32,000 nucleotides of DNA, from positions 1 through 32,000 of the forward strand of contig DIRZ01000002.1 in the NCBI GenBank assembly GCA_002421785.1, given 5' to 3'. The notes beneath the pieces were generated by a model. It was not told where the DNA came from and did no database searches. It was given only the letters and a program-made list of their open reading frames with translations. Every line of letters starts with the position of its first letter. The first letter of the stretch is position 1. This document shows, in pieces, positions 3,535 to 28,800 of the stretch. This stretch comes from Candidatus Saccharimonadota bacterium (GTDB taxonomy: Bacteria > Patescibacteriota > Saccharimonadia > Saccharimonadales > Saccharimonadaceae). The position numbers and the translations under genes are program-made.

Positions 3535-6180
3535 CTACTTTAGATGGATGACACCACTATCGCCGCTTATCTCACGCATACCATCATCAGGCGCATTCGA
3601 TTCGGCGGCCGGTGCGTTGGTCGCGGTAGCTGATGTTTTTGATTTACGTTTGCGAACTCGTTTGCGCTTGGGTTTTGTCGGCTCGACGTCTTTTTCAGTC
3701 AGTGTGGTGGGTGGAGCGGTCACGTGGGCCAATGCCGTATGCGCAGCGTCATGTGCGGGTGATTCGTTGCCGGCCGGCTTCGCTGGCGTGGCGGCTGGCG
3801 GCGGAGTGGTCGGCTGGGTGTGCGCCCGCGGAGCCGAGTGATGCGCAGACGAGGGCTGTGGATTACCTAAGTACCGCTCATTGACATAGCGGTCAACGAA
3901 TTCCCGACTGACACCATAGCTGCGCCGACTATTCATTATTATGTGCTCTGAATAATCAGTCTGTTGCTGCGGCAAATTGAGCGATATGGCCGAGAAGCCT
4001 GGCACTTTTTCGCCCTCTATCGTCATGCTGATGACGAAATGACGGTTATGCATGTGGACTAGGTCGTATTCCAAGAATTTCGGCTCAAAGTACTTGAGCA
4101 TGCTGCGGGCATCGTCAGCGCTCATCCTGAAGGCAATTATCGAACCTACGTTGCCAAACACGGCATCCTTTACTTCTACCGACATCTGGGCGATATACTG
4201 GTTGGCCACTGTCAAGTTGAGGCCGTATTTGCGCGCCTCACTCAATATGGTCGCGAAACTATCGGTCGCGAAGTTTTGGAATTCGTCGACGTACAGATAA
4301 AATGGCTCGCGCTGATTAGCTGGGATGTCGGCTCGGCTCATCGCCGCTAGCTGTATCTTGGTGACTAGTAGCGCTCCGAGCAAACTGGCGTTGTCCTCAC
4401 CGACCAAACCACGGCTGAGGTTGACGATAAGAATCTTGCGCTCATCCATGATCTGACGGATATTGAAGCTGGATTTGGGCTGTCCGATGATATTGCGCAC
4501 CAGCGGGTTAGCCGTGAAGGCGCCGACCTTGTTGAGCACTGGTGCAACGGCTTCGGAGGCAAACTTATCATTCCAGCTGGCGAACTCAACCATCCAGAAG
4601 TTGCGCACCACCGGATCCTGGACATGCTGCAGCACCTCGTTACGAAAACGTTTGTCGGTAAGTATGCGCGTGATATCCAGCATGGTCGCATTGGGGTAAT
4701 CAAGCAGTGCTAGCAGGCTGTAGCGCAAGATGTACTCCAAGCGCGGTCCCCAGCTATCGAACATCCGCTTTAGTACGCCAATCAATTCGCTGCAGGTATG
4801 TGTCCGCAATTTCGGGTCATTGACCTCCATGGGGTTGAAGGCGATTGGGAAGTCGATATCGGCCGGATTGAAATAAATCACATCATTGGCCCGGGATGGC
4901 GGAATACGCTTGAGTGTACTGACGGCATAATCACCGTGGGGATCGATGACGGCAAAGCCGTACGGGCTATAAATATCGGATATGGTCAGCAGCTCAAGTA
5001 GGCCGGACTTACCGACACCCGTCTGCCCGATGATGTAGAGGTGGCGTCCACGATCCGTTCGAGGCAAGCCGAAGACCGTATTGTGGCCACGGAAGTTAGT
5101 ATTAGCAACAGGGCTGATATCGGGCCGTGGCGTATCACCGACTATCGGCAAATTGGCCGGTGGCTCAGCCGTCTGGCTGGTGGCCCACAGTATGTATGGC
5201 GTCTCGACATTGGTGTGCGGCAAGTGATACAGCGTCGCAACTTCTTCGATGTTCAGCGTGTAACCAGTCCTGTCAAAATCACGAGTCCGATACAAACGGC
5301 CAACGTATGGATCGTCCGAGATTTTCTTGGCCTCGAAACCGTTCAGATAGGTTGTGTTGAATTGCTTATAGCTGGCCACTATCGATTGCATCTGCAGCTT
5401 GGCTTGCGGCGGCGGGACGTTACCGCGATAAACAATCTTGATCGCCGCCTCGAAGGCGAGCTTGTGGCTTTTTTCCTCAGCGCTGTTAGCTCGGGCTTGG
5501 TCATATTCGGTCAGCTTAGCGGCCGTTCCACCTGGGCCATAATCGGGTGGCCGCCACAGTGCCTCAATCATACTAAGCGGGTTGGATGAACCGGCGCCAC
5601 CGCGCAATTTGGCGACATAGCGCTCACTTTTACGGTGCCAATTCGAGGCGGCGGGGCGAATCAAGAGCTGGATCCAGGCTTCCTCGTCAGCCTTGAACTT
5701 GGCCAGGGTGGCGGTGATGGCGGCCAATGGGTCCACCTCGAAACTTTGGAAAGTCTTGATTGGCAAGGCCTCTTGGCCTGTCATACGAATTTCGGTAGCC
5801 AACATGGTGGTATATGGTTCTTGGTTCGCCGTATAATCCGGCACCTCACTGATTTGGACCGTCGGATATTGGGCGTAGATTTGTTCCTCGACGAAACTTT
5901 TCAGATAGGTCGGCACCCAGACATAAAAGCCGATGCGTTGTTTGATGACGGCTATCTCAAAGCTCAGGCACTCACGAAAAGCCGGTTGCCAAGCTTTCGG
6001 CGACGGTATCGTCAGCAGACCATGCAAGCTGGCAAACATCTGCTCGGCGGCTAGCTCTTTTTTCTCGTTAGTCCGTGGCACCTGCAATAACAGCACTACC
6101 CCGTCATCATCGGTATCTTGCGGTTTTGGAGTTGGTACTCTTGTGTCTGCCATAGCAAATAAAGCCGCCAAAGCGGTCAT
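3535..6180 (-). CDS. VirD4/TraG/TraD-like P-loop ATPase (FtsK-HerA superfamily) with a disordered basic tail
   Basis: Motifs are Walker A GQTGVGKSG, Walker B-like LYVDEFQNF, and ARKYGLNLTVANQ. The N-terminal ~350 aa form a non-ATPase domain. The last ~120 aa are Pro/Ala/Thr-rich and contain KPKRKRVRKRKSK. Confidence 0.6.
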   Translation of the reverse strand: MTALAALFAMADTRVPTPKPQDTDDDGVVLLLQVPRTNEKKELAAEQMFASLHGLLTIPSPKAWQPAFRECLSFEIAVIKQRIGFYVWVPTYLKSFVEEQIYAQYPTVQISEVPDYTANQEPYTTMLATEIRMTGQEALPIKTFQSFEVDPLAAITATLAKFKADEEAWIQLLIRPAASNWHRKSERYVAKLRGGAGSSNPLSMIEALWRPPDYGPGGTAAKLTEYDQARANSAEEKSHKLAFEAAIKIVYRGNVPPPQAKLQMQSIVASYKQFNTTYLNGFEAKKISDDPYVGRLYRTRDFDRTGYTLNIEEVATLYHLPHTNVETPYILWATSQTAEPPANLPIVGDTPRPDISPVANTNFRGHNTVFGLPRTDRGRHLYIIGQTGVGKSGLLELLTISDIYSPYGFAVIDPHGDYAVSTLKRIPPSRANDVIYFNPADIDFPIAFNPMEVNDPKLRTHTCSELIGVLKRMFDSWGPRLEYILRYSLLALLDYPNATMLDITRILTDKRFRNEVLQHVQDPVVRNFWMVEFASWNDKFASEAVAPVLNKVGAFTANPLVRNIIGQPKSSFNIRQIMDERKILIVNLSRGLVGEDNASLLGALLVTKIQLAAMSRADIPANQREPFYLYVDEFQNFATDSFATILSEARKYGLNLTVANQYIAQMSVEVKDAVFGNVGSIIAFRMSADDARSMLKYFEPKFLEYDLVHMHNRHFVISMTIEGEKVPGFSAISLNLPQQQTDYSEHIIMNSRRSYGVSREFVDRYVNERYLGNPQPSSAHHSAPRAHTQPTTPPPAATPAKPAGNESPAHDAAHTALAHVTAPPTTLTEKDVEPTKPKRKRVRKRKSKTSATATNAPAAESNAPDDGMREISGDSGVIHLK

Positions 6181-12390: not shown

Positions 12391-12515
12391 GCACCCCAAA
12401 ATCTTGAACCAAGGAGCCAAAGCGACTGTTCGTGATTTTGAGAGGAGGGCCGTAGCCGCAAGTCGAAGCTTTTGCGATACCTCGCAAAACGAGACAGAAG
12501 CGTACGGACCGACGA
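12391..12515 (+). ncRNA. Conserved structured tRNA leader element, copy 1
   Basis: It is about 80% identical to 28576-28705. Shared blocks are TTGAGAGGAGGGCCGTAGCCG, CGAAGCTTTTGCGATAC and GACCGACGA. A hairpin TTTTGCGA-TACC-TCGCAAAA lies at 12470-12489. It is non-coding because the two copies differ by indels. Confidence 0.5.
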
Positions 12516-12548
12516 GGCGGCGTAGCTCAGTTGGTTAGAGCACATTCA

Positions 12549-12657
12549 CATTTTGCATTTTCTTGTGGCGGCGTAGCTCAGTTGGTTAGAGCACAGGACT
12601 CATAAGCCTGGGGTCACAAGTTCAAGTCTTGTCGCCGCTACCAGAAGATGCAAAATG
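12549..12657 (+). repeat. 14-bp inverted repeat bracketing the inner tRNA
   Basis: The arms are CATTTTGCATTTTC (12549-12562) and GAAGATGCAAAATG (12644-12657). They form 13 Watson-Crick pairs plus 1 G-U. Confidence 0.85.
12567..12643 (+). tRNA. tRNA-Met(CAU), elongator type, intact
   Basis: The fold is GGCGGCG TA GCTC AGTTGGTTA GAGC A CAGGA CTCATAA GCCTG GGGTC ACAAG TTCAAGT CTTGT CGCCGCT A CCA. The D arm and variable region match E. coli elongator tRNA-Met as I recall it. Positions G1-U72 and A31-G39 are non-Watson-Crick. Confidence 0.85.
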
Positions 12658-12772
12658 CCAGGACTCATATTCGAGGACACGCACAGGAGCCTGCTCCGAG
12701 CATGCCGCAAGGATATACAACGTATAAGCCTGGGGTCACTGGTTCAAGTCCAGTCGCCGCTACCAAAATAAG

Positions 12773-12796
12773 TACCCGAATTCGTCGGGTATTTTT
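12773..12796 (+). terminator. Intrinsic terminator after the tRNA locus
   Basis: The hairpin is TACCCGA-attcg-TCGGGTA followed by TTTTT. Confidence 0.75.
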
Positions 12797-12799
12797 ATT

Positions 12800-12814
12800 T
12801 GGTAGTATATTTTC
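12800..12814 (+). promoter_or_regulatory. Extended -10 TGgTAGTAT placed 6 nt upstream of the Nudix ATG
   Basis: The sequence is TGGTAGTATattttcATG with no SD. Confidence 0.45.
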
Positions 12815-16944: not shown

Positions 16945-17304
16945 TTATATAAGGGCCTGGAGTTCACGGGCGAGCGCGGGAAATTGGCGTATGGGTGGAG
17001 TATACGTCCCCATAGCCTCACCCCTAGACCAATCTATCCAGACTTCAGATTCCGACAAGTCTCGGATATCCTCGGGCATATCTACCTCAATATCCTCACA
17101 CGTACCATCCGGTTTCTCAAAAGCCGCTCGCACGATCAACCTTCCAGTCATTTCAGTAATAGTGGCGCCCCCCTCCGTCTCGACTTCCCGAATGGCCGTC
17201 TCGCCCAATTTTTTTGTCTCAGCATCAGGTTCCTGCAGTCTCTTGTTGGCCACCTCCCATAACTCACGAATCGCTAAGTGTGCGTCTTGCCGCGTCGTTG
17301 ACAT
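16945..17304 (-). CDS. Hypothetical acidic 119-aa protein
   Basis: It is an ORF with no motif that I recognise. Confidence 0.45.
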   Translation of the reverse strand: MSTTRQDAHLAIRELWEVANKRLQEPDAETKKLGETAIREVETEGGATITEMTGRLIVRAAFEKPDGTCEDIEVDMPEDIRDLSESEVWIDWSRGEAMGTYTPPIRQFPALARELQALI

Positions 17305-17361
17305 AGTCTCTTCCCCTTACGATGGTTGTACTATACAACAAATTAGCATGGTTGTCGCAGG

Positions 17362-17552
17362 TGGTCTTGGGGCGAGGATATCGCGTATCTGCGGCGCACT
17401 CCTCCCTGCGGTACTCGCCCAATAGATGAGAGCACCTTTTGGGCTCCGTTCCTCGTTCGCCGAACCTTATGGTTCGTGCCCTACTCCCGGAAATCGAAGA
17501 TATGAATTAAAACAGTCCTCCATTGGAGGGCTTTTTTAATTCATCTTGGTTC
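17362..17552. repeat. Island-flanking direct repeat, copy A (degenerate tRNA-fMet 3' fragment, about 170-bp unit, then TGGTTC remnant)
   Basis: Positions 17394-17552 align without gaps to 27755-27913. I count 9 mismatches outside a flipped 29-bp hairpin. Positions 17362-17379 are a decayed copy of TGGTTCCGGGGGCAGGAC. Confidence 0.85.
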
Positions 17553-17728
17553 ACCAAATACATTCGAATTGGAACCTTATCTGTTCAGAGTTGGTTAGAT
17601 GGTTAGGGTTATCAAGGGGTGAAATCTCCGCAATTTACTCTGCCGTGCGAGACTAGAACTCAGCCAGTTTAGCTCCTCATGTACATTGAGTAGCTTCCCG
17701 AACGCTTAGAGGTTAATGCTTCATCTTC

Positions 17729-18093
17729 TTATGTTAGTACGAGACTATTTTTCTTTTTTGGGAAAAGTGGTCCGAGCGTAACGTATGAAACGACAAGAGC
17801 TATGGCAAATATAACAATAGCCATTACAACTGCAGTAGCGATTCTTTGAGCTGCATTTGGGGTACCCAAAATTTGGAACAAGGCGGTTAAACACCAAGTC
17901 GCTGCTAGTACCAAAAAATTATCGATGAAACGAGAGTTGCACGACTAAGGTATCGCAAATGTCTTTCCCGCAAAAAGGCATTGTCTTTACTCTCGTGGAG
18001 TATGATTTCAGGATCTCTGCGGATATACAAAAGCCGCATTAAATTAAATCCTGCGCTAAGAACTAAAATGATGCTTATTACGGTTGACGTCAC
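17729..18093 (-). pseudogene. Possible frameshifted 3-TM immunity-like gene (track ORFs 17905-18093 and 17729-17914)
   Basis: The two ORFs overlap by 10 nt in different frames. Fusing them at ...SSIIFW/VLAATWCLTALF... makes one continuous TM helix. The alternative is two coupled micro-ORFs. Confidence 0.35.
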
Positions 18094-18294
18094 TTTTTGA
18101 TGGCATCAATTAGGCCAAATATTACAAATAATATGCCTGTGACTATGGCACCATATGTAGATATTCTTACACTCCGCTCCCCAAAGTGAAGTTTGTAGTA
18201 TCTGTTCTGCAAATCAAGCAGATGCCCCGACAAGGGCCTTGCAAAAAATAATTGATACTATGCCAAGGGTAACGAACAAGTAACCTGGATTCAT
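18090..18294 (-). pseudogene. Frameshifted third paralog of the 2-TM immunity family
   Basis: The ATG 18294 frame reads MNPGYLFVTLGIVSIIFCKALVGASA and then stops at 18216-18214. Another frame continues LLDLQNRYYKLHFGERSVRISTYGAIVTGILFVIFGLIDAIKK. That matches QNEMWKLHFGERSVQISIW... of ORF 19219-19434. Confidence 0.65.
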
Positions 18295-18297
18295 ATC

Positions 18298-18510
18298 CTA
18301 ATGCACTAACATCCGAGCGCTCTGCACCAACAATGATACACCAATCAGAGCCGCAACTAGCCTGTTAACTATGATTGTTTTTTGATCGAATTTTATACCC
18401 CAAGCTTCGTTTTGGACCTTAGCTATATATCGAGCCAACTGGCCGTTAAAGATTATTAGGCTTAGTCCAGCTACAGCTACTAACACTATTTCCAATTTAT
18501 CATGTGCCAT
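18298..18510 (-). CDS. Small 2-TM protein, putative immunity for orphan toxin tip 2
   Basis: The 70-aa ORF lies immediately downstream of the orphan tip. AGGA lies 6 nt upstream. It shares the QNE(A/M)W motif and architecture with 19219-19434. Confidence 0.6.
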   Translation of the reverse strand: MAHDKLEIVLVAVAGLSLIIFNGQLARYIAKVQNEAWGIKFDQKTIIVNRLVAALIGVSLLVQSARMLVH

Positions 18511-18526
18511 ATTATTCCTAAGTATA

Positions 18527-19192
18527 TCACCATGTATAGCTCAACGAGTGGGAGTACCCTCCCGGCAAACCGATCCCATATTCATAGGAGCCATCAGCGT
18601 CACGGCTGCCACTAAGTCCCAATAGCGAGATTGACGTACTTTGGCTTAGCCCCGTCTGTAGGTGGTTGCCCGCAACCCAACTTATACCACGACCCGCGCT
18701 CGAGATACCAATTGATGCACGGAGATGAAGTGTGTGGTCACTATTGAACGCAACCCCTAAGGATACTCCCACTCCATACCTTGCAACACTTACGTCAATC
18801 GCCGTGTACCCAGTAATAGGCACAGGGTGCGGAGCATTGTAAAGTGAATAGGCTGCTTTTAACTTCGTAATATCCGTCCCAGCCACTGTAGCCCTCTTCA
18901 TCGCCGTAGAGTTATCCTTCTTGGCAATGGATACCGTTTTGTAGGCTACCAGTATCCTGGTTGGGGCAGCGCTTGCCTTCTGTAGCCGTGATCCACCTGG
19001 TGCTGACTGGATATTCCTGCCGCTTGGTGCGGGTTGCACTGCACTAATAGTCCCTGCCGGTTGCCAGAAAGATACGCTCCCGGCGGGGCATTGTAACATA
19101 CACATCCCACTCAGGTCATTGAAGTTTATTGGGTCCAGTGAGTAGCTGTAGGCATTGGCATTACCGCCTATGACTGGATCTTTGGATGTAAC
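18527..19192 (-). CDS. Orphan Rhs C-terminal cassette 2 (28 codons of Rhs core end plus about 190-aa toxin tip)
   Basis: The frame is open from 19192 and reads [30 protein letters not shown]. That stretch is nucleotide-identical to the main Rhs gene. A divergent tip follows. The only start is the junction Met (19105). Confidence 0.75.
   Translation of the reverse strand, partial: VTSKDPVIGGNANAYSYSLDPINFNDLSGMCMLQCPAGSVSFWQPAGTISAVQPAPSGRNIQSAPGGSRLQKASAAPTRILVAYKTVSIAKKDNSTAMKRATVAGTDITKLKAAYSLYNAPHPVPITGYTAIDVSVARYGVGVSLGVAFNSDHTLHLRASIGISSAGRGISWVAGNHLQTGLSQSTSISLLGLSGSRDADGSYEYGIGLPGGYSHSLSYTW
19041..19191. repeat. 151-bp perfect direct repeat, copy a
   Basis: It is identical to 20920-21070 (offset 1879). 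It spans the Rhs core-end/toxin junction. Confidence 0.95.
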
Positions 19193-19218
19193 TCAATCGA
19201 TCACAGTCAACCAACGGA

Positions 19219-19434
19219 TTATTGGTGTGACAATGCCTTGACTACGCTCGATATAATGATGAGGACACCGACAAGTCTAAACATCCATATGGAAATCTGT
19301 ACAGATCTCTCGCCGAAATGGAGTTTCCACATCTCATTCTGAGCCTCTATACTCCTTCTGCCAAGGGTATTCGCAAGAGATACAACTATTATCCCGATTA
19401 ACACTCCCACTACTAGTACTTCATGATTATTCAT
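19219..19434 (-). CDS. Small 2-TM protein, putative immunity for orphan toxin tip 1
   Basis: The sequence is MNNHEVLVVGVLIGIIVVSLANTLGRRSIEAQNEMWKLHFGERSV... The track start at 19440 is a TTG, and I prefer ATG 19434. Confidence 0.6.
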   Translation of the reverse strand: MNNHEVLVVGVLIGIIVVSLANTLGRRSIEAQNEMWKLHFGERSVQISIWMFRLVGVLIIISSVVKALSHQ

Positions 19435-19471
19435 TACCAACTCATTATACCTAAATCAATTTACATACTAA

Positions 19472-20071
19472 TCAATAGATTCTCGTGTACGTTATTGATG
19501 CTCCGGGCATGCCGAAGCCTGCAGCCCTTAACCCCTGATAATTAACACTGGCGCAAACGAAGATGCACAGATCTAATGTAACATCCGAGCCCTCTGTGAC
19601 ATTGCCAGAACTCACCGAGTAGCTAGGGCTAAAGCCTGGAGTGCCAATTCCGCCCTGCCAATATCTGCGTGTCACAGTCCCATCAGTAACCAGGCCGTAA
19701 CCTCCAACTATACCGCCGAACCCTGCGTTTACGCCGATAGCTTTACTAGAAGGCCCGACTTCAGTGTGCTGTGGCGCTCCGTATAACTCCATCGCAGGCT
19801 TCAACTTAGTAATATCCACTCCACTCACGGTCGCCCTACCCATCGCTGTAGAGTTATCCCTTATGGCTACCGTGGCCGTCCGATTCGCTACCAGTATCCT
19901 ATTCGATGAAGTGCTGGACTTCTGGATACTCGTACCGCTCCGGGTGGATTGGTAACTGCTGGTAGTTCTGGTTGGCTGGACAGCTCGAGTAGTAGCCGCT
20001 GGCTGTAAGTATGAAGTACTGACAGTACATTGCAGCACGCACATCCCACTCAGGTCATTGAAGTTTATTGA
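19472..20071 (-). CDS. Orphan Rhs C-terminal cassette 1 (toxin tip with a short core remnant)
   Basis: It reads ...[10 protein letters not shown] then CVLQC... It shares a 30-bp perfect match with the main junction. The middle part (NSTAMGRATVSGVDITKLKP) is homologous to cassette 2. The track's N-terminal extension to 20185 overlaps the immunity gene and is rejected. Confidence 0.7.
   Translation of the reverse strand, partial: SINFNDLSGMCVLQCTVSTSYLQPAATTRAVQPTRTTSSYQSTRSGTSIQKSSTSSNRILVANRTATVAIRDNSTAMGRATVSGVDITKLKPAMELYGAPQHTEVGPSSKAIGVNAGFGGIVGGYGLVTDGTVTRRYWQGGIGTPGFSPSYSVSSGNVTEGSDVTLDLCIFVCASVNYQGLRAAGFGMPGASITYTRIY
20041..20070. repeat. 30-bp junction repeat, third copy
   Basis: ACATCCCACTCAGGTCATTGAAGTTTATTG also occurs at 19102-19131 and 20981-21010. 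Confidence 0.9.
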
Positions 20072-20108
20072 ATTGAGTGAGTGGGCATTTTTCAGTAGTA
20101 GAACCGTG

Positions 20109-20408
20109 CTAGTTCCGGGGGTGCTTGCGGTAGAGTATAAGATTAGCCCCCATAATAGCACCAACCAGAAGGTTAAGCCCCGCAAACTCTAATCCAAGTT
20201 TTAGATTACTAACAAGCAGGTAGCCTAAAGGAACGCTAAATACTGCGACAAGAAGCAAAAACCCGAAGTAAGTAGGAAGTCGGGACCTATCGAAGTAAAT
20301 GTCGCGATTTATTATACCCATACGGGGACCACGTATCTGGGAAATAAGAAATAAGACCGTCGCAAATATAAAAGCGATAATTACTAATAGCGTTTGATTA
20401 TCTCTCAT
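20109..20408 (-). CDS. 3-TM small membrane protein, putative cognate immunity of the main Rhs toxin
   Basis: The 99-aa ORF starts 19 nt after the Rhs stop. AAGGGG lies upstream. Confidence 0.65.
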   Translation of the reverse strand: MRDNQTLLVIIAFIFATVLFLISQIRGPRMGIINRDIYFDRSRLPTYFGFLLLVAVFSVPLGYLLVSNLKLGLEFAGLNLLVGAIMGANLILYRKHPRN

Positions 20409-20426
20409 TCATTTCCCCTTCTAATC

Positions 20427-23400
20427 CTAATACTTTAATCCACTAAGATAACCTCTAACATCCTCTTGGATGGAAGTATCTGTTACATCATTGACCTTCT
20501 CGCCTATTGTCATATATGTGAGGAAACCACCCCACGCACCCTTTGTACAACCACTTACAGCCGCAGCTGGGATGCTTACACCCTCCGTAAACATTGCTGC
20601 CATCATACCTGCTGCCATGAATGCCCCACCGGTATATACACATCCCTGACCTACAGCCATTACCGCCCCTCTTATTGAATAACTGCCATTACCAGACGGT
20701 GCTTGCACTACGGCAACCGGAAGCGACTGAACCAAAGGTAACTTGATTCTAACCGGTTTGACAGTGGCCACCGCAAGCCTCGTTGAACTGTCGTAGTGCT
20801 TCGCTATTACAACTGTTTTATTCGCTACGTTTTGTCTCGTTAATGCTGCGCTAGACTTCTGAACGCTAGTCCCCCTCCCTGCCGCCTGATAACTACCCGC
20901 TGTCCGAACTGGTTGTACCGCACTAATAGTCCCTGCCGGTTGCCAGAAAGATACGCTCCCGGCGGGGCATTGTAACATACACATCCCACTCAGGTCATTG
21001 AAGTTTATTGGGTCCAGTGAGTAGCTGTAGGCATTGGCATTACCGCCTATGACTGGATCTTTGGATGTAAAGGCACCGAGTACTGCTAGGTAGACTCTGG
21101 CACCCATTTGAACAGGAGCAAGCCCCATGCTGGTTTCTTCAAGCTTTTGAGCTGAACCACCATAGCCGTAGCTGCCGTCGAGGGTATTGGCTACCCTAGT
21201 GCCACCGGGCAGCATGTTGCCGTATGGGTCGTAGGTGTAGCTGTTGAGCGGACCGTTACCGGTGCTGGTGTTGGCTCCCGCACCGTCCAGTGTGAGTAGT
21301 GTACGGCCAAGTATGCTTGGTAAGCTGTACGTCTTTTGAGCACTACCGGTTTGTAGCGGATGAATGGTCAACAGCACACCACCAGGTAAGCTTACAGACT
21401 TCTCCACGATATCCCAGTTGGCATCCCGAATTATATCCGGAGAGTCTCCGTCACCCGTATAGCCGTAGTACCAGTAGTTATTAACCGTGTACGTTCCCGC
21501 GTTGATATCGTCGTGTTCACGGTACGTGATACGGCCCGTGACGTCACGGTCATAGTACATGGCATCACCATTCTGATTACTATCGTAATTGACCAGGCAC
21601 CAGTTGCGGTCGGTGCTGTCGTAGCACATTCGGAGCGGCGTAGTGCCCGTGCCAAGATAGGTCATATTGCCATGGCCGTCATACTCACTGTAATTGGCCA
21701 CAGGATCGCTACTGGCAACAATCTGGTCGGCATAGTTGTAGCAATACTGAGTAGTCGTTCCGTCCACCGTTCGCCAAGTCATGTTGCCATTCTTGCCCGC
21801 ATTCGGGTTTATGCCGTTGCTAGTGCCACAGTATGTGGCATTTTGACCATCATAGCCGTAGGCATATGAGTCCGAGCCGACGGATGCTGCCGTAAGGCGC
21901 CCTGCTTTGTCGTAAGTATATGCCTGGCTAAGGCTATTTGCGCCGGATTGGACGACGTCTGTCAGTGTTTTACCACTTTGGGTGAAGGTCTTGGTATCGG
22001 AAATGGTCGTGCCATTAGCCAGCGTGTAAGTTAGTGAATTATCACGCTGCATACTATCGTGGCCCACCTGCGCACCTACTTGCTGCCCGGCATTCGGGTA
22101 ATTGACGTGGTCTACACGTCCGTATTGATCGTATGTAACGATTGCGTACGTTGTGCCGTCTAGTACATAGCTCGCCAATCGATACAGATTATCGTATGTA
22201 TATTGCTCCGTGCCCAGATCGCCAACTTTTTGTGTTAGTTGACCGGTGGCATTGTAGTCGTACTCCGTCCAGTTACCATCCACGTCGGTGTAACCCGTAG
22301 TTCGGCCCAGCAAGTCAACGATAGTGATGATTGAGCCGCTACTGTCCCATACTACTGATGTGAACGGATCACCATTACGAGCGTAGTCGTGGCTTACTGT
22401 CCGCGCAGATCCATCACCGATTGCGGGGATAGCCATAGTGCTAACACGGCCACGACTGTCATAAGTTGTGCAGGTCCATGGGTCACTGTTGTAACGATTC
22501 GCCACAACGCGTCCTGCATCGTCATAGATTACTTCGTACACGCGTCCGGCGGTGCTCCCGTCTGGGCTCGCTTCCGTACGGGTCTTCATGAAACCAGCTT
22601 GCTTGTAGGCCTCAACTGTAGTCGTGCATGGGTCATCTCTTGTTTCGGTAGCACCATAATAGGCATAGCTATAGGTCGGGTTGCTCGATGGGCTGCCTGG
22701 CAAACTACTGGATGTTTGGCGCAAGTAGCTTCCGCTTGCCCCTTGTTGCTCATAGGTAGTCTGAGCAGTCAGATTAAGCCCCGTAGGATCAACTGTCGCA
22801 GAGCGAGCCAAACCTAATTCTGGATTGCTACCGTAGTCTGTCGTGACCGTTGTGTTGCCTATAGTGCTATCGTAGACCGTGCCTGAGGTCGGTAAGCTAT
22901 ACCCAGGCTTTAAATAGCCACTCCAGTCACTTGTTGCGCCGAAGCCTCCTTGTTGTTGCACCGTGAGCGTGAACGCACCCGTAACACCTGTTCGGCGATA
23001 CGTTTCAAGCTGGAAACGTTTTGGCGAACTATCAGTGACACTAAACGTTGAATTTGATGTGACACGAGTCGTGGTACTATCTGTCCACTGGTTCAAGATA
23101 AGCTGATCGGCTATCCAAAGCCTCACACCGTCAGGCGTCGTGGCGCTGATCGTGTAGGTACCAACCGGTAACCTTAGCTCGCCACTTGCGCTGAAGCCTA
23201 TGCCCTGCTTACCCGATGATGCCGAAATTGGCGGACTCGTAAAGTCATTCGTTAATGTGCCCGGAGTAGTGGTGTTGATACCAGTAGTGTGCAATTTTGG
23301 AGCGCCATACAGGATACCTGAGGTATCTGTTGATTGCTTAGAGTAGTCAAACCAAGCAACGGATGGGCCTACAATGTTTTCGTCATATCCGGCGTCCGAT

Positions 23401-26400
23401 CGAGCAACTTGTGAGGTATATGTCGAGAGAGGCACCTGATGGGTGGGGTCCGAGGTGTCATACCAAGTACTTGGCGCCGGGCCATAATTGGTTACTGGGC
23501 GATCCTCGTCGTCGTATATGGTCGTGCTCTTCAGGCCAAGATTATTTGTGGAACCGTAGACAAGGTCTTTGTTTTCATCCCACTCTACCGAAGAACTTTG
23601 GTTATTATTATCCGTGACCTTGGTTGTACGGTACAAATCATCGTACTCAACACGCTTCATGAAGCCATTAGGTTCAGTTGCACCCGTAATATTTTCTTCA
23701 GTTGCTCCTGCATATCCAGGCACGTCATTGCCGTTTTGATCCACATATCCTTTTAATCCAGGTAGGTACTTCAAAGTGTACTCAATCCTTGAGCCGTTAT
23801 CGGCTGCGTCTGGCATCTTGACTGATGTCACACGACCTAACTGATCGTATGTTAACGAAGTATTCGCATTGTCATTATCCGCACGATAACCGGCTGCAAT
23901 CGCATCCATCGCCAAACTATCGCGAACTGCGTTCAGACGGTAACCTACCGTACTACCTGAACCATTAGTGACTGCTTCGTAGCGAAGATCGGTTAGGTTG
24001 CTACCGGGCTGAGCAATACGCGCCAGTTGGCCTTGGATGTAATAGAAATGGGTGCTTCGCCCATCATTGGTCGTCACGGCACATAACATTCCTGTTGGAG
24101 TCGTTGCATCGAAACCGGTAGGCGACGTGCCGCAGGACGAACTGCCGCTATAGTAGAGCGTCGCGCTACGAGATTGGTCTACTCCGTCGATTATTTGCTG
24201 AAGATGCGTTGGAGTTCCGCCGTATACATACTTGAGTGCAGCTGGAGTCCTGTCATCGCTCGAGCTCGTTGCGGACGACAATGTCCCATCGCTATTGAAC
24301 ACGTAAGTCATTCCGTCAATATCTTGGAATGTGAAAGTGCCATCTGCATTCCGTACCAAATGGCCGTCCTCATTTACTGGAGGCGTGTAGCCTGAACCCG
24401 TCCATTTATATTCATGGGTAGCGCCCGATGCGTCACTGAGGATAACACTGTTAAGACTAGGTTTTAGATGGTCGTAATTTACTCCCCCAGTTGAGCTTGT
24501 ACTAAGCTGCCAACCAGCAGGTAGCACTTGAGCATTTGGCGAAAGCCAGTCAGAAGGCGTAATTTGCGCCGGAACGGTTGTCCCATTTGAAGTCTTCATC
24601 CAAAATTCAAAGCTGGCAGTAGTGGCTTGGTCAAAATATTCGATGGTTATTGGTACTTGAACGCCTTGGGTAAGATTCATGGTTGTCGTACCCCATTGCG
24701 CTGTTGAAGGCGCTGAGTGGGCGGTCCAGTTGTTATAGACAATGGTGTTGCCTGTACCAACAGTTATTTTTGCTCCATCATCGCTACGCACTCCGAACAA
24801 GTATGTACCGGTTGTGGGTACGGTAAGATAACCAGTCCATCTTGCTAGAAAATCAGCCGGACCACCAGCAACAGGCGCGCCCGTTCCCCAGTTGAAGCTC
24901 AGTAATGGATCCGTTCGCTTCATCACCAAAGGATTACCGCTCGAGAACGTGTTCGTACCATCTAGCCGTGCAAAGTAACTGCCCGTAAGCCCATGCTCCG
25001 TAGCTGCGGGGCGTACTCCAGTCTGCAACCAATCAGATGGAGCAATCTGATCTTGGCCGTCAGGCGTTTTTACGTGCAGCTGGACATTCGCGGTGCTTGT
25101 GTTTTCCCAGTACAGTACGCTAATGGGTACCACCTGACCGGCTTGGAGCGTTGTCGCGGAGCCATAGGTTATGCCCGTGTGCCACGCCGTGCTGTTGTAC
25201 ACTTGCACGCTATTCACAGTTACGCTCATCGTGTCATCGTTAGTGCCCCCGAAGTAATAGCTCCCTGTTTGCGGAGCGATAAAATAGCCATCCCATTGAG
25301 CTGAGTAGTGATCATTTACGCTTGTAGTGAACCCTGGGTTACCTGTGCCCCAATCGAAGTCAACATTTTGGTCTACTCGTGTTATAGCTGGGGTACCACT
25401 GCGGGTATCGTTTGTCCAATAACGGCCGACTAATCCGGCTCGCGAACGAAGAGGAGAGTTGTAGTCCATAGTCACTCCAAGTGACCCGCCCAAAGCATCA
25501 GATGAATGGCTCATAGCGCTGGTCGATACATTACCAGTCGCAAGATCCACACTTACTGGCCCGATATCTTCATATGTCTGAGTTTTATCTTTCCCGGTGC
25601 GTGTATCAATCCTGAACGCCACAGAGGTTCCCCATGCGCTATAGCTAGCAGTAATGGGGTCATAAACCCTGGCTTGAATGTAGTAAGTATTGCCGTCTTG
25701 CAACACATTGTCAGGCGACGTCCACTGACGAGCATTGAGTTTGCCTGAGTCAATAATCGTACCGTTTGCGGTAGGGCCGGTGCTTACCAAGAACTCGTAT
25801 TGTAGCGGCGTGCTGCCATTTGGGTTTTGTTCATAATTAACCGTGAATGATGGCTGAGTTTCGACATACACCTGATCGTCCACGGGGCTTGCTATGCTAG
25901 GCGCTGCTGGGGGACCGCCGTAAGTAAACGCGACATAGCTTCCCGTCGTACCACCGGTGCCCGGATCAAAGTTTTTGAAAGAATTCGTTGTGCCATCTTC
26001 CCCACCAAGCATCAACCATGCACCGAAGTCACCAGCAGCAATTCGCGCCTGATAAATATTAGTGACATCGATGTTCCCTGAAGTTGCAATATTACCGGAA
26101 TCATTAAAGTGGCCACCCTCAAGACAACTTGAAAAACTATTCAAACAAGTTGCATGCCCAACATAATAAGTATGAGTACCAGTAGCCCCGGTCCAAAAAC
26201 TCGCCTGGCGCTGTACTAAATGAAGGCTTGCTTGTGTTAAAAGATTGCTGGAGTTTTTGAATTGATCATATTTGGCATAGAACGCGCTGCGCCAATATCG
26301 CAGGATGTTATTGCTGTCGTACAAAGAACCGGCATATGGGTTACACTCCGTCGAAAGACAGATAAAGCCATCACTCTTAAACGACTTGTAGTTACCACTT

Positions 26401-27563
26401 GTCCGTGTGCCGAAGTTACTGTAATAGGTACTCGGGTCAATGACCGCCGGGAACGCCTTGTCGGGGAGATCCGCCAAATAAGAATCTTCGACGGAAAGCT
26501 TAATGGTATCCGCCGAGTATGTTTGCGTGAATTTACCAGGCTCCGTGACCATACCAAAATTATTTAGAATCAAGTTTGCCGGAGTTACATTGAACTTTTG
26601 GTCTAGGGCTCCGTCGATCGAGTAGTATGTACCAACCTCCTGCTGCCCCTGGTGTTTACCCAGCGTGCCACCGAGCAGTTTGAAACTAAAACTATGGGCG
26701 GAATCTTTGTTCTTGAGAATAATATTCTCCTTCACAGCATCGGTTTGGAGAGAATATTCAACATCCACACCATCCCAAAGGTTGTAATAGTGCACCGTTT
26801 GTTGGCCGTCGGCTTGGGTAATGACGGGCGTGACCGAGTTGGCACCTTCGGGTACATACCCTATCTGATCTGTGCCCATTTTGATTCGAACCATGCCTCC
26901 TGCAAAATCACTTGGCGCGAAGCGTGCCTGCCATGTATTCCCCGATGTCGTGAAGAACGCCTCATTCGTAAACCACGATTCAATATTCCCCCACGTCTTG
27001 CCAAAGATATTTCCAGAGTCAGCAGCGTTTTTGTCTTCGGTGAGGCCAAGATCGATAGTCTTCCACTCTCCGTCCACTTTATAGAAATGAGGAGCGAAAT
27101 AATTCTTGCGCGTAATTGAGCCGTCCGCATTAACTTGGCTCTCCGATGTCGCAGTACGTTCACTGACAATTTCATGAGGGGTGATCGGCGCTTGTTTTTC
27201 AATTGTGCCAAGCGCCTGTTTGCTAGCACCTATGCCCGAATTGCCTCCAAGTACGGAAAGCACATCGATACCGGTCGTATCGGCAGCGGCATCGCCACTG
27301 CCTTTTGTGGGTTGCATACCACTTGGGTAGTTAAAACTATGCTCCTTTGTTGTGGCGTCTTTATCAATGTGGAGGCGCTTAGAGGCATTAGTAAAGTCGT
27401 GTTTCTTATACTGGATATCTACGGCAATGGCAGAAGCGCTGGGAGCACTAAGTCCAGCCAAGAACAACAGAAGAAAAAACAGCGCTGTGAGGCGCTGTAT
27501 AGGTAATTTTCGTAATCTCGTAAAGTTTAGGAGTTTATTGGTAACGCTGAACAATCGGGTCAT
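20427..27563 (-). CDS. Sec-dependent Rhs/YD-repeat polymorphic toxin (WapA-like) with three PA14-like domains
   Basis: I start it at ATG 27563 (MTRLFSV...), which has AGGAGA 6 nt upstream. The signal peptide is [21 protein letters not shown]. Many YD repeats are present ([45 protein letters not shown]). The core-end motif is [29 protein letters not shown] 184-aa tip follows. Confidence 0.92.
20920..21070. repeat. 151-bp perfect direct repeat, copy b (inside the main Rhs gene)
   Basis: It is identical to 19041-19191. Confidence 0.95.
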
Positions 27564-27687
27564 TTTCGGTCTCCTACACAAATTTACTACCGTACTCATA
27601 ATAAGCTTAAGATTTAGTTAAGCACAACCGTTTTGTTCTAAGTCATTGTGGAAAAGTTTACGATACCACTCTGTGCGTGGTTTCGAA

Positions 27688-27721
27688 GAAAAAGCACTCA
27701 CCGTTTGGTGAGTGCTTTTTT
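27688..27721. terminator. Bidirectional intrinsic terminator
   Basis: The sequence is AAAAAGCACTCACC-gttt-GGTGAGTGCTTTTTT. Confidence 0.8.
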
Positions 27722-27913
27722 GGTTCCGGGGGCAGGACATCGCGCGCACTTTGTGCGCACTCCTCCCTGCGGTACTCGCTAAAAAGATGCGAGCACCTTT
27801 TTAGCTCCGTTCCTCGTCCGCCGAACCTTACGGTTCGTGCCCTACTCCCGAAAATCGAAGATATGAATTAAAAAAGCCCTCCAATGGAGGACTGTTTTAA
27901 TTCATCTTGGTTC
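27721..27913. repeat. Island-flanking direct repeat, copy B (18-nt duplicate of the tRNA-fMet 3' end plus the about 170-bp unit)
   Basis: TGGTTCCGGGGGCAGGAC at 27721-27738 is identical to 27908-27925. The rest aligns to 17394-17552. Confidence 0.9.
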
Positions 27914-27982
27914 CGGGGGCAGGACTCGAACCTGCGACCTCGTGGTTATGAGCCACGCGAGCTGCCGCTGCTCCACCCCGGG
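27908..27982 (-). tRNA. Initiator tRNA-fMet(CAU)
   Basis: The reverse complement reads CCCGGGG TG GAGC AGCGGCA GCTC G CGTGG CTCATAA CCACG AGGTC GCAGG TTCGAGT CCTGC CCCCGGA A CCA. The C1/A72 mismatch is typical of bacterial initiators. It closely resembles E. coli tRNA-fMet as I recall it. Confidence 0.85.
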
Positions 27983-28066
27983 ATATCTGGATATATCTTA
28001 TATATACCTTCGGCTGAAGGTAAGACTCGAACATGGTACCAATCTAAGGCTAGCTTGTCAACGACC

Positions 28067-28525
28067 CTACTGACGGTGCAAGAAGAAGTCGACCCATGAC
28101 CGGAAGTTGCGCTGCCAGCCTGGTTGGGCATTGGCGGCGGTAACCTGTTCGTCATAGCCGGGCAAATCCACGGTGTGGGCCAGCGCAACGTCGCGCGGAA
28201 CGATCAGCTCGGTTTCGCCCGGTTTGGCTAAGCCGAAGTTCTGCCTGGCGGATAGCTCCAGGTATTGGTTGGTCTTGTAATATTCGTTCTCTAGCCGCAG
28301 GTTAGTGTTACCTAGCGACTGCAGATCGGTCTGTTGCTGCAACTCGGCAATTTCCTTCTGCAGACGGTAATTGGTATCGATTGCCTTAACGCCGCTCCAG
28401 CTTACCAGTAGTACTATCACGCCGAAGCCAATCAATCCCAGCACTCTCACATCACGGGCCTCATGCAGATAAGGCTTGTACTCTTTGTATTTGGCATTCA
28501 GCCACTGCTTGAGAAAACGAAACAT
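28067..28525 (-). CDS. Septum formation initiator family protein (FtsB/DivIC-like)
   Basis: It has one N-terminal TM segment followed by a coiled coil (LQKEIAELQQQTDLQSLGNTNLRLENE) and ARQNFGLAKPGE. Confidence 0.75.
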   Translation of the reverse strand: MFRFLKQWLNAKYKEYKPYLHEARDVRVLGLIGFGVIVLLVSWSGVKAIDTNYRLQKEIAELQQQTDLQSLGNTNLRLENEYYKTNQYLELSARQNFGLAKPGETELIVPRDVALAHTVDLPGYDEQVTAANAQPGWQRNFRSWVDFFLHRQ

Positions 28526-28556
28526 ATCCCTAGTAGTATATAACCTGTGCCCAATC

Positions 28557-28565
28557 TGGTATACT
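28557..28565 (+). promoter_or_regulatory. Extended -10 TGgTATACT for the tRNA-Ile2 transcript
   Basis: This position predicts a leader of about 130 nt in front of the tRNA. Confidence 0.4.
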
Positions 28566-28575
28566 CATCCCTGTT

Positions 28576-28705
28576 GCAACCACCCAATTTTTCAAACCAA
28601 GGAGCCTATAACGACTGTTTGAAAAATTGAGAGGAGGGCCGTAGCCGTGGACCGAAGCTTTTGCGATACTTCGCAAAAACAAGGCAATGGCGTACAGACC
28701 GACGA
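28576..28705 (+). ncRNA. Conserved structured tRNA leader element, copy 2
   Basis: It is the homolog of 12391-12515. A hairpin TTTTGCGA-TACT-TCGCAAAA lies at 28659-28678. Confidence 0.5.
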
Positions 28706-28781
28706 GGGGGTGTAGCTCAGTGGTTAGAGCAGCGGGCTCATAACCTGTTGGTCGATGGTTCAATCCCATCCACCCCCACCA
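28706..28781 (+). tRNA. tRNA-Ile2(CAU), predicted TilS substrate
   Basis: The fold is GGGGGTG TA GCTC AGTGGTTA GAGC A GCGGG CTCATAA CCTGT TGGTC GATGG TTCAATC CCATC CACCCCC A CCA. The D loop and TTGGTCG variable region resemble E. coli tRNA-Ile2 as I recall it. The Met versus Ile2 assignment is an inference. Confidence 0.7.
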
Positions 28782-28800
28782 AAATGATTTCAGGCGCGAG

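Follow-up and report, generated by a model that had tools for sequence, protein, structure and literature searches.

The 32,000-nucleotide stretch analysed here (the window), which comprises positions 1 to 32,000 of contig DIRZ01000002.1 in the Candidatus Saccharimonadota assembly GCA_002421785.1, contains three tRNA(CAT) genes, and the one at 27908-27982 is of the initiator type (tRNA-fMet). Downstream of this gene, on the minus strand, two direct repeats flank an Rhs toxin locus, and an earlier note on this DNA had read the whole as an island bracketed by repeats derived from the tRNA 3' end. In general type, this variable island linked to tRNA-fMet is a familiar one; its unusual part is a conserved family of small cassettes that bear copies of the tRNA end and give the array its structure.

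The repeats and the Rhs segment

The two ~190-bp repeats described in the earlier note around the ~10.2-kb Rhs locus are present as copy A (17362-17552) and copy B (27721-27913). They are identical at 166 of 193 positions in a global alignment, and a repeat search within the window recovers a gapless direct repeat of 159 nt between 17394-17552 and 27755-27913 (91%). The 19-mer TTGGTTCCGGGGGCAGGAC occurs exactly at 27720-27738 and at 27907-27925; the second site is the 3' end of tRNA-fMet, where it spans the last T-loop bases to CCA plus one base, and the exact copy of this end (18/19-mer) lies 187 nt downstream of the tRNA. The decayed 18-mer that had been proposed for copy A matches the tRNA 3' end at 12 of 18 positions, for which the chance at a fixed aligned position is about 2e-4 by our own calculation, and the proposed TGGTTC remnant is likewise found, at 17547-17552.

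Read in the tRNA orientation, the identity between the two copies is uneven: it amounts to 144/158 (91%) over the first 158 nt and to 22/35 (63%) over the final 35 nt, which correspond to a hairpin (hairpin 3) and the 18-mer, and the longest exact run common to both copies is 25 nt. Fourteen mismatches fall in the well-matching part, four of them in two compensatory pair swaps within a 12-bp hairpin and five in a single inversion, which also supplies five of the nine mismatches over 134 collinear nt in the earlier count, a count that is about right. The inverted piece is a 43-nt terminator quasi-palindrome, with 17502-17544 being the exact reverse complement of 27863-27905; the inversion is a small event between the 11-bp perfect arms of the palindrome, and it reverses the strand facing the strong T-run and with it the direction of the strong terminator.

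Between the direct repeats lie 10.17 kb of Rhs toxin and immunity DNA. The Rhs segment proper extends from 17553 to 27719 and has at both sides GAACCAA, the last nucleotides of a tRNA 3'-end core copy. Its proximal border is the exact core copy at 27720-27738, which is at the same time the distal border of the tRNA-adjacent unit (U_B); its distal border is the 7-nt remnant at 17546-17552, beyond which follow the second unit (U_A) and, at the far end of the island, the 12/18 copy at 17362-17379. Copies of the tRNA 3' end do mark boundaries, as had been supposed, but the far border of the island is not formed by the exact 18-mer, which closes only the 169-nt unit beside the tRNA. Nor are the repeats simply derived from the tRNA 3' end: within the unit, only the 18-mer and a partly complementary stretch are of tRNA origin, and the rest belongs to the cassette family described below. 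The tRNA-repeat-Rhs structure is genuine and no assembly artefact, because independent assemblies span both junctions. The copy A junction is spanned in L001 and L002 (other loci and contigs are given L numbers throughout), with Rhs orphan modules on one side and the gene at 16945-17304 on the other, and the copy B junction is spanned in L007-L009, whose sequence runs from the tRNA through the repeat into Rhs; these metagenome contigs are 99.8-100% identical to the window.

The main product of the segment is a protein of 2390 aa with PA14/GLEYA domains, YD repeats, an Rhs-associated core at residues 2123-2206 and a C-terminal toxin, and it matches the Rhs families PF05593, TIGR01643 and TIGR03696 (the last at residues 2123-2206). 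Two orphan C-terminal modules repeat the junction between the Rhs core and the toxin over 160 nt at 99% identity. The 160-nt repeats lie at 19032-19191 and 20911-21070, and a third copy, of a 55-nt core, lies at 20028-20082 (85%). Recombination at these junction repeats could exchange the expressed toxin for an orphan module, and the combination of the main protein, orphan modules and small immunity-like open reading frames (ORFs) is that of an Rhs polymorphic toxin locus with predicted toxin and immunity activities. As a separate observation, metagenome assemblies break exactly at the junction repeats. The G+C content is 0.40-0.52 within the island versus 0.54-0.57 in the left flank, and no ORF of more than 100 aa is found in the island besides Rhs and its fragments; the earlier description of the intervening DNA as Rhs toxin and immunity genes of lower G+C content, with no integrase, is therefore upheld. 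Among the 20 window ORFs that were scanned against Pfam, there was no Phage_integrase or Resolvase match. The features of the array are listed in Table 1. The gene at 16945-17304 has a promoter-like site at 17330-17358, directly after U_A, and the remainder of the cassette to which the 15-nt stub at 27671-27685 belongs is absent.

Table 1. Features of the tRNA-fMet array, in window coordinates and in order from the tRNA outward
Feature	Position	Strand	Evidence or remark
Promoter-like site upstream of tRNA-fMet, TTGACA-17-TACCAT with TG extension	28033..28061	-	Sequence conserved in relatives
Initiator tRNA-fMet, anticodon CAT, C1xA72 mismatch; anchor of the array	27908..27982	-	61.8 bits against RF00005
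T1, 43-nt quasi-palindromic terminator hairpin that opens unit U_B	27863..27905	-	Strong T-run faces the tRNA transcript
U_B body: 5' strand complementary to the tRNA 3' end, and hairpins 1-3	27739..27862	-	Fold; homology to units of relatives
Core copy 2, exact 19-nt duplicate of the tRNA-fMet 3' end (GTCCTGCCCCCGGAACCAA)	27720..27738	-	Repeat search
T2, terminator hairpin, 28/30 to that directly after tRNA-fMet in L046	27688..27719	-	
15-nt stub of another cassette (CGAAACCACGCACAG), identical to the S2 block of the L050 unit	27671..27685	-	
Main Rhs protein, 2390 aa as listed; likely start at ATG near 27563	20427..27599	-	
Orphan Rhs C-terminal modules (19472-20185, 18527-19105) and small membrane ORFs	17729..20408	-	
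Likely immunity ORFs (small, membrane)	20109-20408, 19219-19440, 18298-18510, 17729-18233	-	
TTGGTTC, last 7 nt of a core copy (GAACCAA in tRNA orientation)	17546..17552	-	Direct repeat of 27720-27726
T1', inverted form of the T1 hairpin; strong T-run faces the plus strand	17502..17544	-	Exact reverse complement of 27863-27905
U_A body: hairpins 1 and 2 kept, with two compensatory pairs relative to U_B; hairpin 3 decayed	17380..17501	-	
Decayed core copy (ATCCTCGCCCCAAGACCA), 12/18 to the tRNA 3' end; closing stem broken without compensation	17362..17379	-	
First flanking gene, 119 aa, no known family	16945..17358 (promoter-like site included)	-	

Cassettes downstream of tRNA-fMet

Ten independent tRNA-fMet loci of Saccharibacteria were compared, which were collected by an 18-mer scan of species-representative genomes and from contigs encoding DivIC/HD homologues. 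In eight of the ten, a unit lies directly after tRNA-fMet and follows one plan in the tRNA orientation, in which a terminator hairpin is followed by a ~135-170-nt body and then by an 18-mer like the 3' end of the resident tRNA. Units are carried by the window (twice), L017, L029, L046, L048, L050-52 and L053; L047 carries a short version, and L049 and L041 carry none. The 18-mers track the resident tRNA's own sequence (GTCCTGTCC in L046 and L048, CCCGCA in L050), with two to three mismatches in single units and six in copy A. The bodies contain conserved blocks such as GGTTCGG(C/T)G.A.CGA, CGCAGG-hairpin-CCGAGCAT, GGAGGAGTG and GCGCTGTCCTG, and their hairpins vary in sequence and keep their position across relatives. 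When a profile of eight units was run against 448 kb of sequence, it matched the tRNA-fMet loci and one weak fragment at 12672-12704, which adjoins a tRNA-Met gene of the window; within these 448 kb, the unit is confined to tRNA-fMet loci save for that fragment, with no sign there of the dispersed genome-wide repeat that the earlier note had considered as a possibility. On this comparison, the unit is a member of a family of cassettes downstream of tRNA-fMet, and not a scar made by the Rhs island; the family appears to be undescribed.

Several related arrangements of tRNA sequence accompany the units. In L029 (339-369), L046 (11048-11075) and L048 (10647-10677), the first element of the unit repeats the tRNA-fMet 3' half in inverted form (21-25 of 32 nt). 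This element pairs with a partial copy in direct orientation (GGTCAC.GGTTCG) on the far side of a GC-rich inner hairpin, which gives the unit the form of a palindrome made of tRNA sequence. At 10778-10934 of L046, a duplicated tRNA-fMet 5' half (to the anticodon loop) lies upstream of the intact tRNA and is followed by an X-type module and then by 'TAACCACGAG'; the unit module therefore occurs inside an anticodon-loop copy as well as in T-loop copies. The tRNA-Met gene near the weak profile match (12567-12643) is itself nested among its own fragments within 12516-12800. These are a 29-nt 5' piece (12516-12544), an anticodon-stem piece (12659-12668) followed by a 55-nt insert that carries the hairpin module of the tRNA-fMet units (ACGCACAGGAGCCTGCTCCGAGCATG), and a 42-nt 3' fragment (12724-12765) with compensatory T-stem changes, after which comes a terminator; an inverted repeat (CATTTTGCAT/ATGCAAAATG) brackets the intact gene. 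The ~110 nt directly upstream of two different tRNA(CAT) genes (12423-12531 and 28612-28721) are ~84% alike and include a small hairpin (TTTTGCGATAC.TCGCAAAA), with no Rfam match at the gathering threshold; this similarity may represent a shared leader or promoter element.

The tRNA-fMet gene of the window is 100% identical in L017, L029, L047, L049 and L053, and the promoter-like motif is also found upstream of it in L029, L047 and L048. Relatives conserve DivIC-tRNA-fMet on one side and the HD/DUF308/AI-2E...TauE-TilS-FtsH backbone on the other, and the interval between the tRNA and the backbone measures 2-15 kb and has a different content in every relative, which bears out the assignment of the locus as a tRNA-fMet-linked variable region. 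L017 has ~2 kb in this interval, L049, L048 and L046 have unrelated genes over 3-7 kb, and the window has 15 kb, Rhs included. In L029, the nearest relative that is informative here (HD protein 84% identical), tRNA-fMet is followed by unit relics and then by Thi4/AIRS/HD, with genes of thiamine type and no Rhs there. All same-species contigs carry the island. The exact empty site that the earlier note had predicted (the tRNA, one repeat and the gene at 16945-17304) was not found; the only other-genome homologue of that gene (50% identity) lies in an unrelated context, and the search for an empty site via HD-protein homologues reached few relatives, mostly on short contigs. In the conserved backbone of the window, a VirD4/TraG-like coupling ATPase of 881 aa (3535-6180) lies beside FtsH and TilS. 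It recurs in L048 and seems to belong to the core genome here, not to a mobile element.

The order of the units is regular. In loci with two units, the proximal one is intact and the distal one is truncated. In both the window and L017, a complete unit with an exact core adjoins the tRNA (19 nt at a spacing of 187 versus 22 nt at 203), the bodies of these proximal units being mutually non-alignable, and behind the exact duplicate both loci have an older terminator and a shortened unit. In L029, the tRNA is followed by a terminator and a complete unit whose core is partial. Behind these stands a U-type unit in truncated form (18-mer with 2 mismatches), and this U-type fragment is nearer to copy B of the window than to copy A. 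The window, L029 and L047 have identical tRNAs and different units, though they are close relatives, and the distant L017 and L029 have near-identical unit parts in common, which points to turnover rather than vertical descent. The pattern of the arrays is the one that repeated insertion beside the tRNA, with outward displacement and decay, would leave, and not that of vertical inheritance of a single scar.

The comparison with relatives also bears on another explanation of the two copies, namely that an ancestral tRNA-unit-gene arrangement was duplicated in place as a segment, with Rhs being native and the copies having drifted since. Direct repeats in the same orientation at both ends are what such a duplication would produce. 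We nevertheless regard it as very improbable: the copies have diverged non-uniformly, with one inversion and two compensatory pairs giving structure to many of their differences; U_B has a perfect core, against 6 mismatches in that of U_A; the Rhs segment differs in G+C content and opens with another terminator and a cassette stub; and relatives are without Rhs at the locus.

The folding of the units raises the further question of whether they function as they stand. The fold of U_B is a four-way junction in which the entire 18-mer takes part in a closing stem of 15 pairs, with hairpin 1 formed by GAACC/GGTTC, hairpin 2 of 12 bp and hairpin 3 of 8 bp. The fold has a z-score of -7.5 with T1 and -5.6 without T1 on the tRNA strand, compared with -2.2 on the other strand, and copy A is without the 15-pair closing stem. 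H1 shows compensatory changes in 4/21 pairs among four sequences, H2 shows AU/UA swaps, and the stems of H3 are wholly different. Taken over the whole unit, z-scores do not reach significance in L050, L053, L017 and U_A and show no strand bias in L029, L046 and L048, so that the strand asymmetry is clear for U_B alone and not across the family. The consensus fold of the whole unit, computed from a MAFFT alignment, is poor (-3.8 kcal/mol) because hairpin lengths vary, and only comparisons at the level of single hairpins are usable. A search of both units against Rfam 15, at the gathering thresholds and at E<=10, gave nothing but tRNA, and the best non-tRNA matches over either unit reached under half of the gathering score and look spurious.

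It is conceivable, although in our view unlikely, that the unit is not a scar at all but a functional structured RNA linked to tRNA-fMet (or a single-strand DNA structure). Such an RNA would be transcribed with or after the tRNA, and its folded 3' end would mimic the acceptor/T-arm strand of tRNA-fMet; the two copies in the window would be paralogous, and the Rhs DNA would have landed between them for unrelated reasons. The constant position after tRNA-fMet in 8/10 loci agrees with this proposal, as do the hairpins that are replaced wholesale yet kept in place with the changes in H1 and H2 just described, the excess of G.U pairs favouring the tRNA strand (17 vs 6), the z-scores of U_B on its two strands, and the better conservation of the 18-mers relative to the unit bodies. 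It is harder to reconcile with the strong terminator ahead of every unit, which leaves no room for a promoter, or with the CCA end, which is absent in 3/8 units and reads GCCA in L050. A good closing stem is found in U_B alone, the z-scores of the other units lack significance or strand bias as stated, L049 and L041 have no unit and several arrays have truncated ones, the unit types differ between close relatives, and Rfam contains no match.

Proposed insertion at the tRNA 3' end and possible import of DNA

The explanation that we favour, and to which we give about an even chance of being correct, is that repeated site-specific insertion at copies of the tRNA 3'-end core built the array, with a recombinase that would have to act in trans, the array itself encoding no such enzyme. 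In this Saccharibacteria lineage, the stretch between the T-loop and CCA at the 3' end of the only initiator tRNA gene would be a recurrent target of site-specific recombination, and small cassettes (terminator hairpin, ~135-170-nt body and tRNA 3'-end copy) would enter one by one, each newcomer settling beside the tRNA and shifting older ones outward to decay or truncation. The order in the window would then be read as the tRNA, U_B (newest), T2 with the 15-nt stub and the 10.17-kb Rhs segment, the 7-nt core remnant, U_A (oldest), and the flanking gene. The Rhs segment would not have inserted by itself to make the 190-bp repeats; rather, it would have been added to a tandem accretion between two units, at a secondary core with which it has only GAACCAA in common. 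Seven nucleotides is the size of the overlap region of tyrosine recombinases, and elements that integrate into tRNA genes usually supply a terminator right after the reconstituted tRNA end. One argument for insertion comes from the exact tRNA 3'-end duplicates, which close complete proximal units in two species whose unit bodies are non-homologous. Others are the 18-mers that track the resident tRNA, the arrangement in L029, the turnover of units among relatives, and the variable zone with the lower G+C content of the Rhs segment. The island is probably fixed and immobile now, as the distal core has decayed, and would be lost only through rare homologous recombination between the 91%-identical units. 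Loss by recombination between the repeats, as the earlier note had suggested, is possible but only weakly favoured, the longest exact run between the units being 25 nt.

A number of observations weigh against repeated insertion. Neither the island nor the other window ORFs that were scanned yielded an integrase, and no cargo-bearing element with matching arms was found in viral contigs, phages or plasmids: the scan of viral contigs with the 18-mer and the U and X blocks gave 0 matches, and in BLAST searches of phages and plasmids the tRNA part alone was matched. Neither an excision product nor an exact empty site was seen. All eight full units are without cargo and similar in size, which is odd for relics of larger elements, so that repeated insertion requires either minicircle-sized mobile units or another mechanism. 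The 18-mers of single units are better kept than their bodies, and the hairpins covary between species with the G.U excess on the tRNA strand, which suggests a function in place, perhaps as RNA. Finally, the start of the Rhs segment (T2) resembles the tRNA-proximal region of another genome, a finding as compatible with the transfer of chromosomal DNA as with an element.

Several other candidates were examined and rejected. The unit 19-mer GGTTCGTGCCCTACTCCCG gave three matches in a metagenome scan, all by chance and in coding DNA of high-GC bacteria. The region 17553-17652, outside copy A, was considered as a decayed tRNA, and 338/500 shuffles align at least as well; the repeat at 28019-28040, considered as a tRNA fragment, is part of the conserved tRNA-fMet promoter/leader. 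Readings as tmRNA (no tag peptide or ARAGORN call), as a group I intron (no Rfam matches), as a bridge-RNA/IS110 element (no adjacent recombinase ORF) and as a miniature inverted-repeat transposable element (flanking repeats of 18-22 nt, too long for target-site duplications) were likewise dropped. A large serine recombinase with Resolvase and Recombinase domains (522 aa) is encoded at 4182-5750 of L050, together with LexA-like and DUF1508 genes, just upstream of DivIC; it looks like a prophage-like insert on the neighbouring tRNA-Met side.

Saccharibacteria take up DNA, and import by homologous recombination is the main alternative, rather unlikely but of appreciable probability. In that case the tRNA gene, cores and units would have served as anchors, and not as attachment scars, for swapping adjacent segments between strains or species, the second joint sometimes being illegitimate, at microhomology such as GAACCAA, and the Rhs segment would be a piece of another genome's tRNA-fMet-proximal DNA. 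The opening of the segment agrees with this: T2 matches the tRNA-fMet terminator of L046 at 28/30 positions and is followed by the 15-nt cassette stub, and the Rhs segment therefore starts with DNA that was once tRNA-proximal. A strain-variable segment adjoins a second tRNA, the neighbouring tRNA-Met gene at 28706-28781, where strains that are nearly identical on one side become unrelated exactly after the tRNA; L007-L010 are 99.9% identical to the window over 20930-28782 and unrelated past the tRNA-Met 3' end. This tRNA-Met differs between the strains from position 27 on (anticodon-stem 5' strand and T-loop), with compensatory changes, which places the crossover within the 5' portion that the genes share identically, rather than at a loop. 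The mosaic identity of U_A and U_B, 91% and then 63%, is also as expected from a conversion tract. Import alone, however, does not account for the exact 19- and 22-nt core duplications that close the tRNA-adjacent units in two species, it leaves the regular order of intact proximal and decayed distal units unexplained, and the 25-nt run is the longest exact stretch that the units would offer for recombination. Repeated insertion at the tRNA 3' end remains our preferred explanation.

Relation to known elements and significance

Tandem islands at tRNA 3' ends are familiar from Islander-type tRNA islands. Tandem genomic islands at a tRNA/tmRNA 3' end are also described, as outlined in PMC3146451, for the ssrA-linked islands of Dehalococcoides. 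As in these, an intact small-RNA gene lies at one end of the window array, direct repeats of its 3' end delimit successive segments, the content varies between strains, the composition is atypical, and older repeats are more degenerate. In contrast to them, the window array is without an integrase gene, its best repeat bounds only the 169-nt unit, and its Rhs segment has only 7 nt of core at the far end. Of the features by which Islander-type islands are recognized, the intact tRNA and the deviating composition are found here, and an integrase within the island is not.

A second comparison is with cis-mobilizable elements (CIMEs), which are kilobases long, derive from recognizable integrative and conjugative elements (ICEs) with the same att sites, and are served by a recombinase supplied in trans. 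This term, and that of site-specific accretion, are in use in ICEberg 2.0 (PMC6323972) and in a review of integrative and mobilizable elements (IMEs; PMC5704250). Like CIMEs, the window segments lie between putative att sites, stand in tandem at one target, have no recombination or transfer genes, and would need a recombinase in trans; unlike CIMEs, the units measure ~190 nt, and viral contigs, phages and plasmids yielded no parent element with matching arms. Att sites of a known ICE or IME at the same target, which would identify a CIME, were not found in these sources.

The resemblance to integron arrays and their attC sites is one of form only. New elements arrive, or in the window would arrive, beside a fixed site, the elements are imperfect palindromes with variable centres and conserved hairpins, and some are gene-less; the window, however, is without IntI, attI and R'/R'' motifs, and its palindromes are built from sequence of the tRNA 3' half. 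Membership among integrons is not supported, as the scanned window ORFs include no integrase and the unit ends are tRNA-derived and not of the GTTRRRY type. A more far-reaching interpretation, which we consider decidedly unlikely, is that the units are undescribed miniature cassettes or RNAs of ~190 nt specific to tRNA-fMet, and that the locus is an integrase-less, integron-like landing pad. The units would then consist of a conserved hairpin module set among tRNA 3'-half copies in both orientations; every unit would renew the 3'-end target, and Rhs toxin arrays and other DNA would be added, shuffled and lost while the single essential initiator tRNA gene is spared. As regards its cargo, the window locus has the PA14 domain, YD repeats, Rhs-associated core, variable C-terminus, immunity-like ORFs and orphan modules of Rhs/YD polymorphic toxin loci and is in itself ordinary; what stands out is the host, a member of the Saccharibacteria, and the site beside tRNA-fMet.

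Saccharibacteria are ultra-small episymbionts with genomes of ~1 Mb and few recognizable mobile elements, and to our knowledge little has been established about how they gain or exchange weapons such as Rhs toxins. In this lineage, the initiator tRNA gene heads a plasticity zone that is different in every relative examined and is organised by small cassettes bearing tRNA ends. If the cassettes were neither recombination substrates nor RNAs, the locus would be a routine degraded tRNA island, useful mainly for the annotation of its Rhs genes; if they are RNAs, they would constitute a new tRNA-linked RNA family; and if they are active recombination substrates, they would represent a compact system of gene acquisition that needs no resident integrase.

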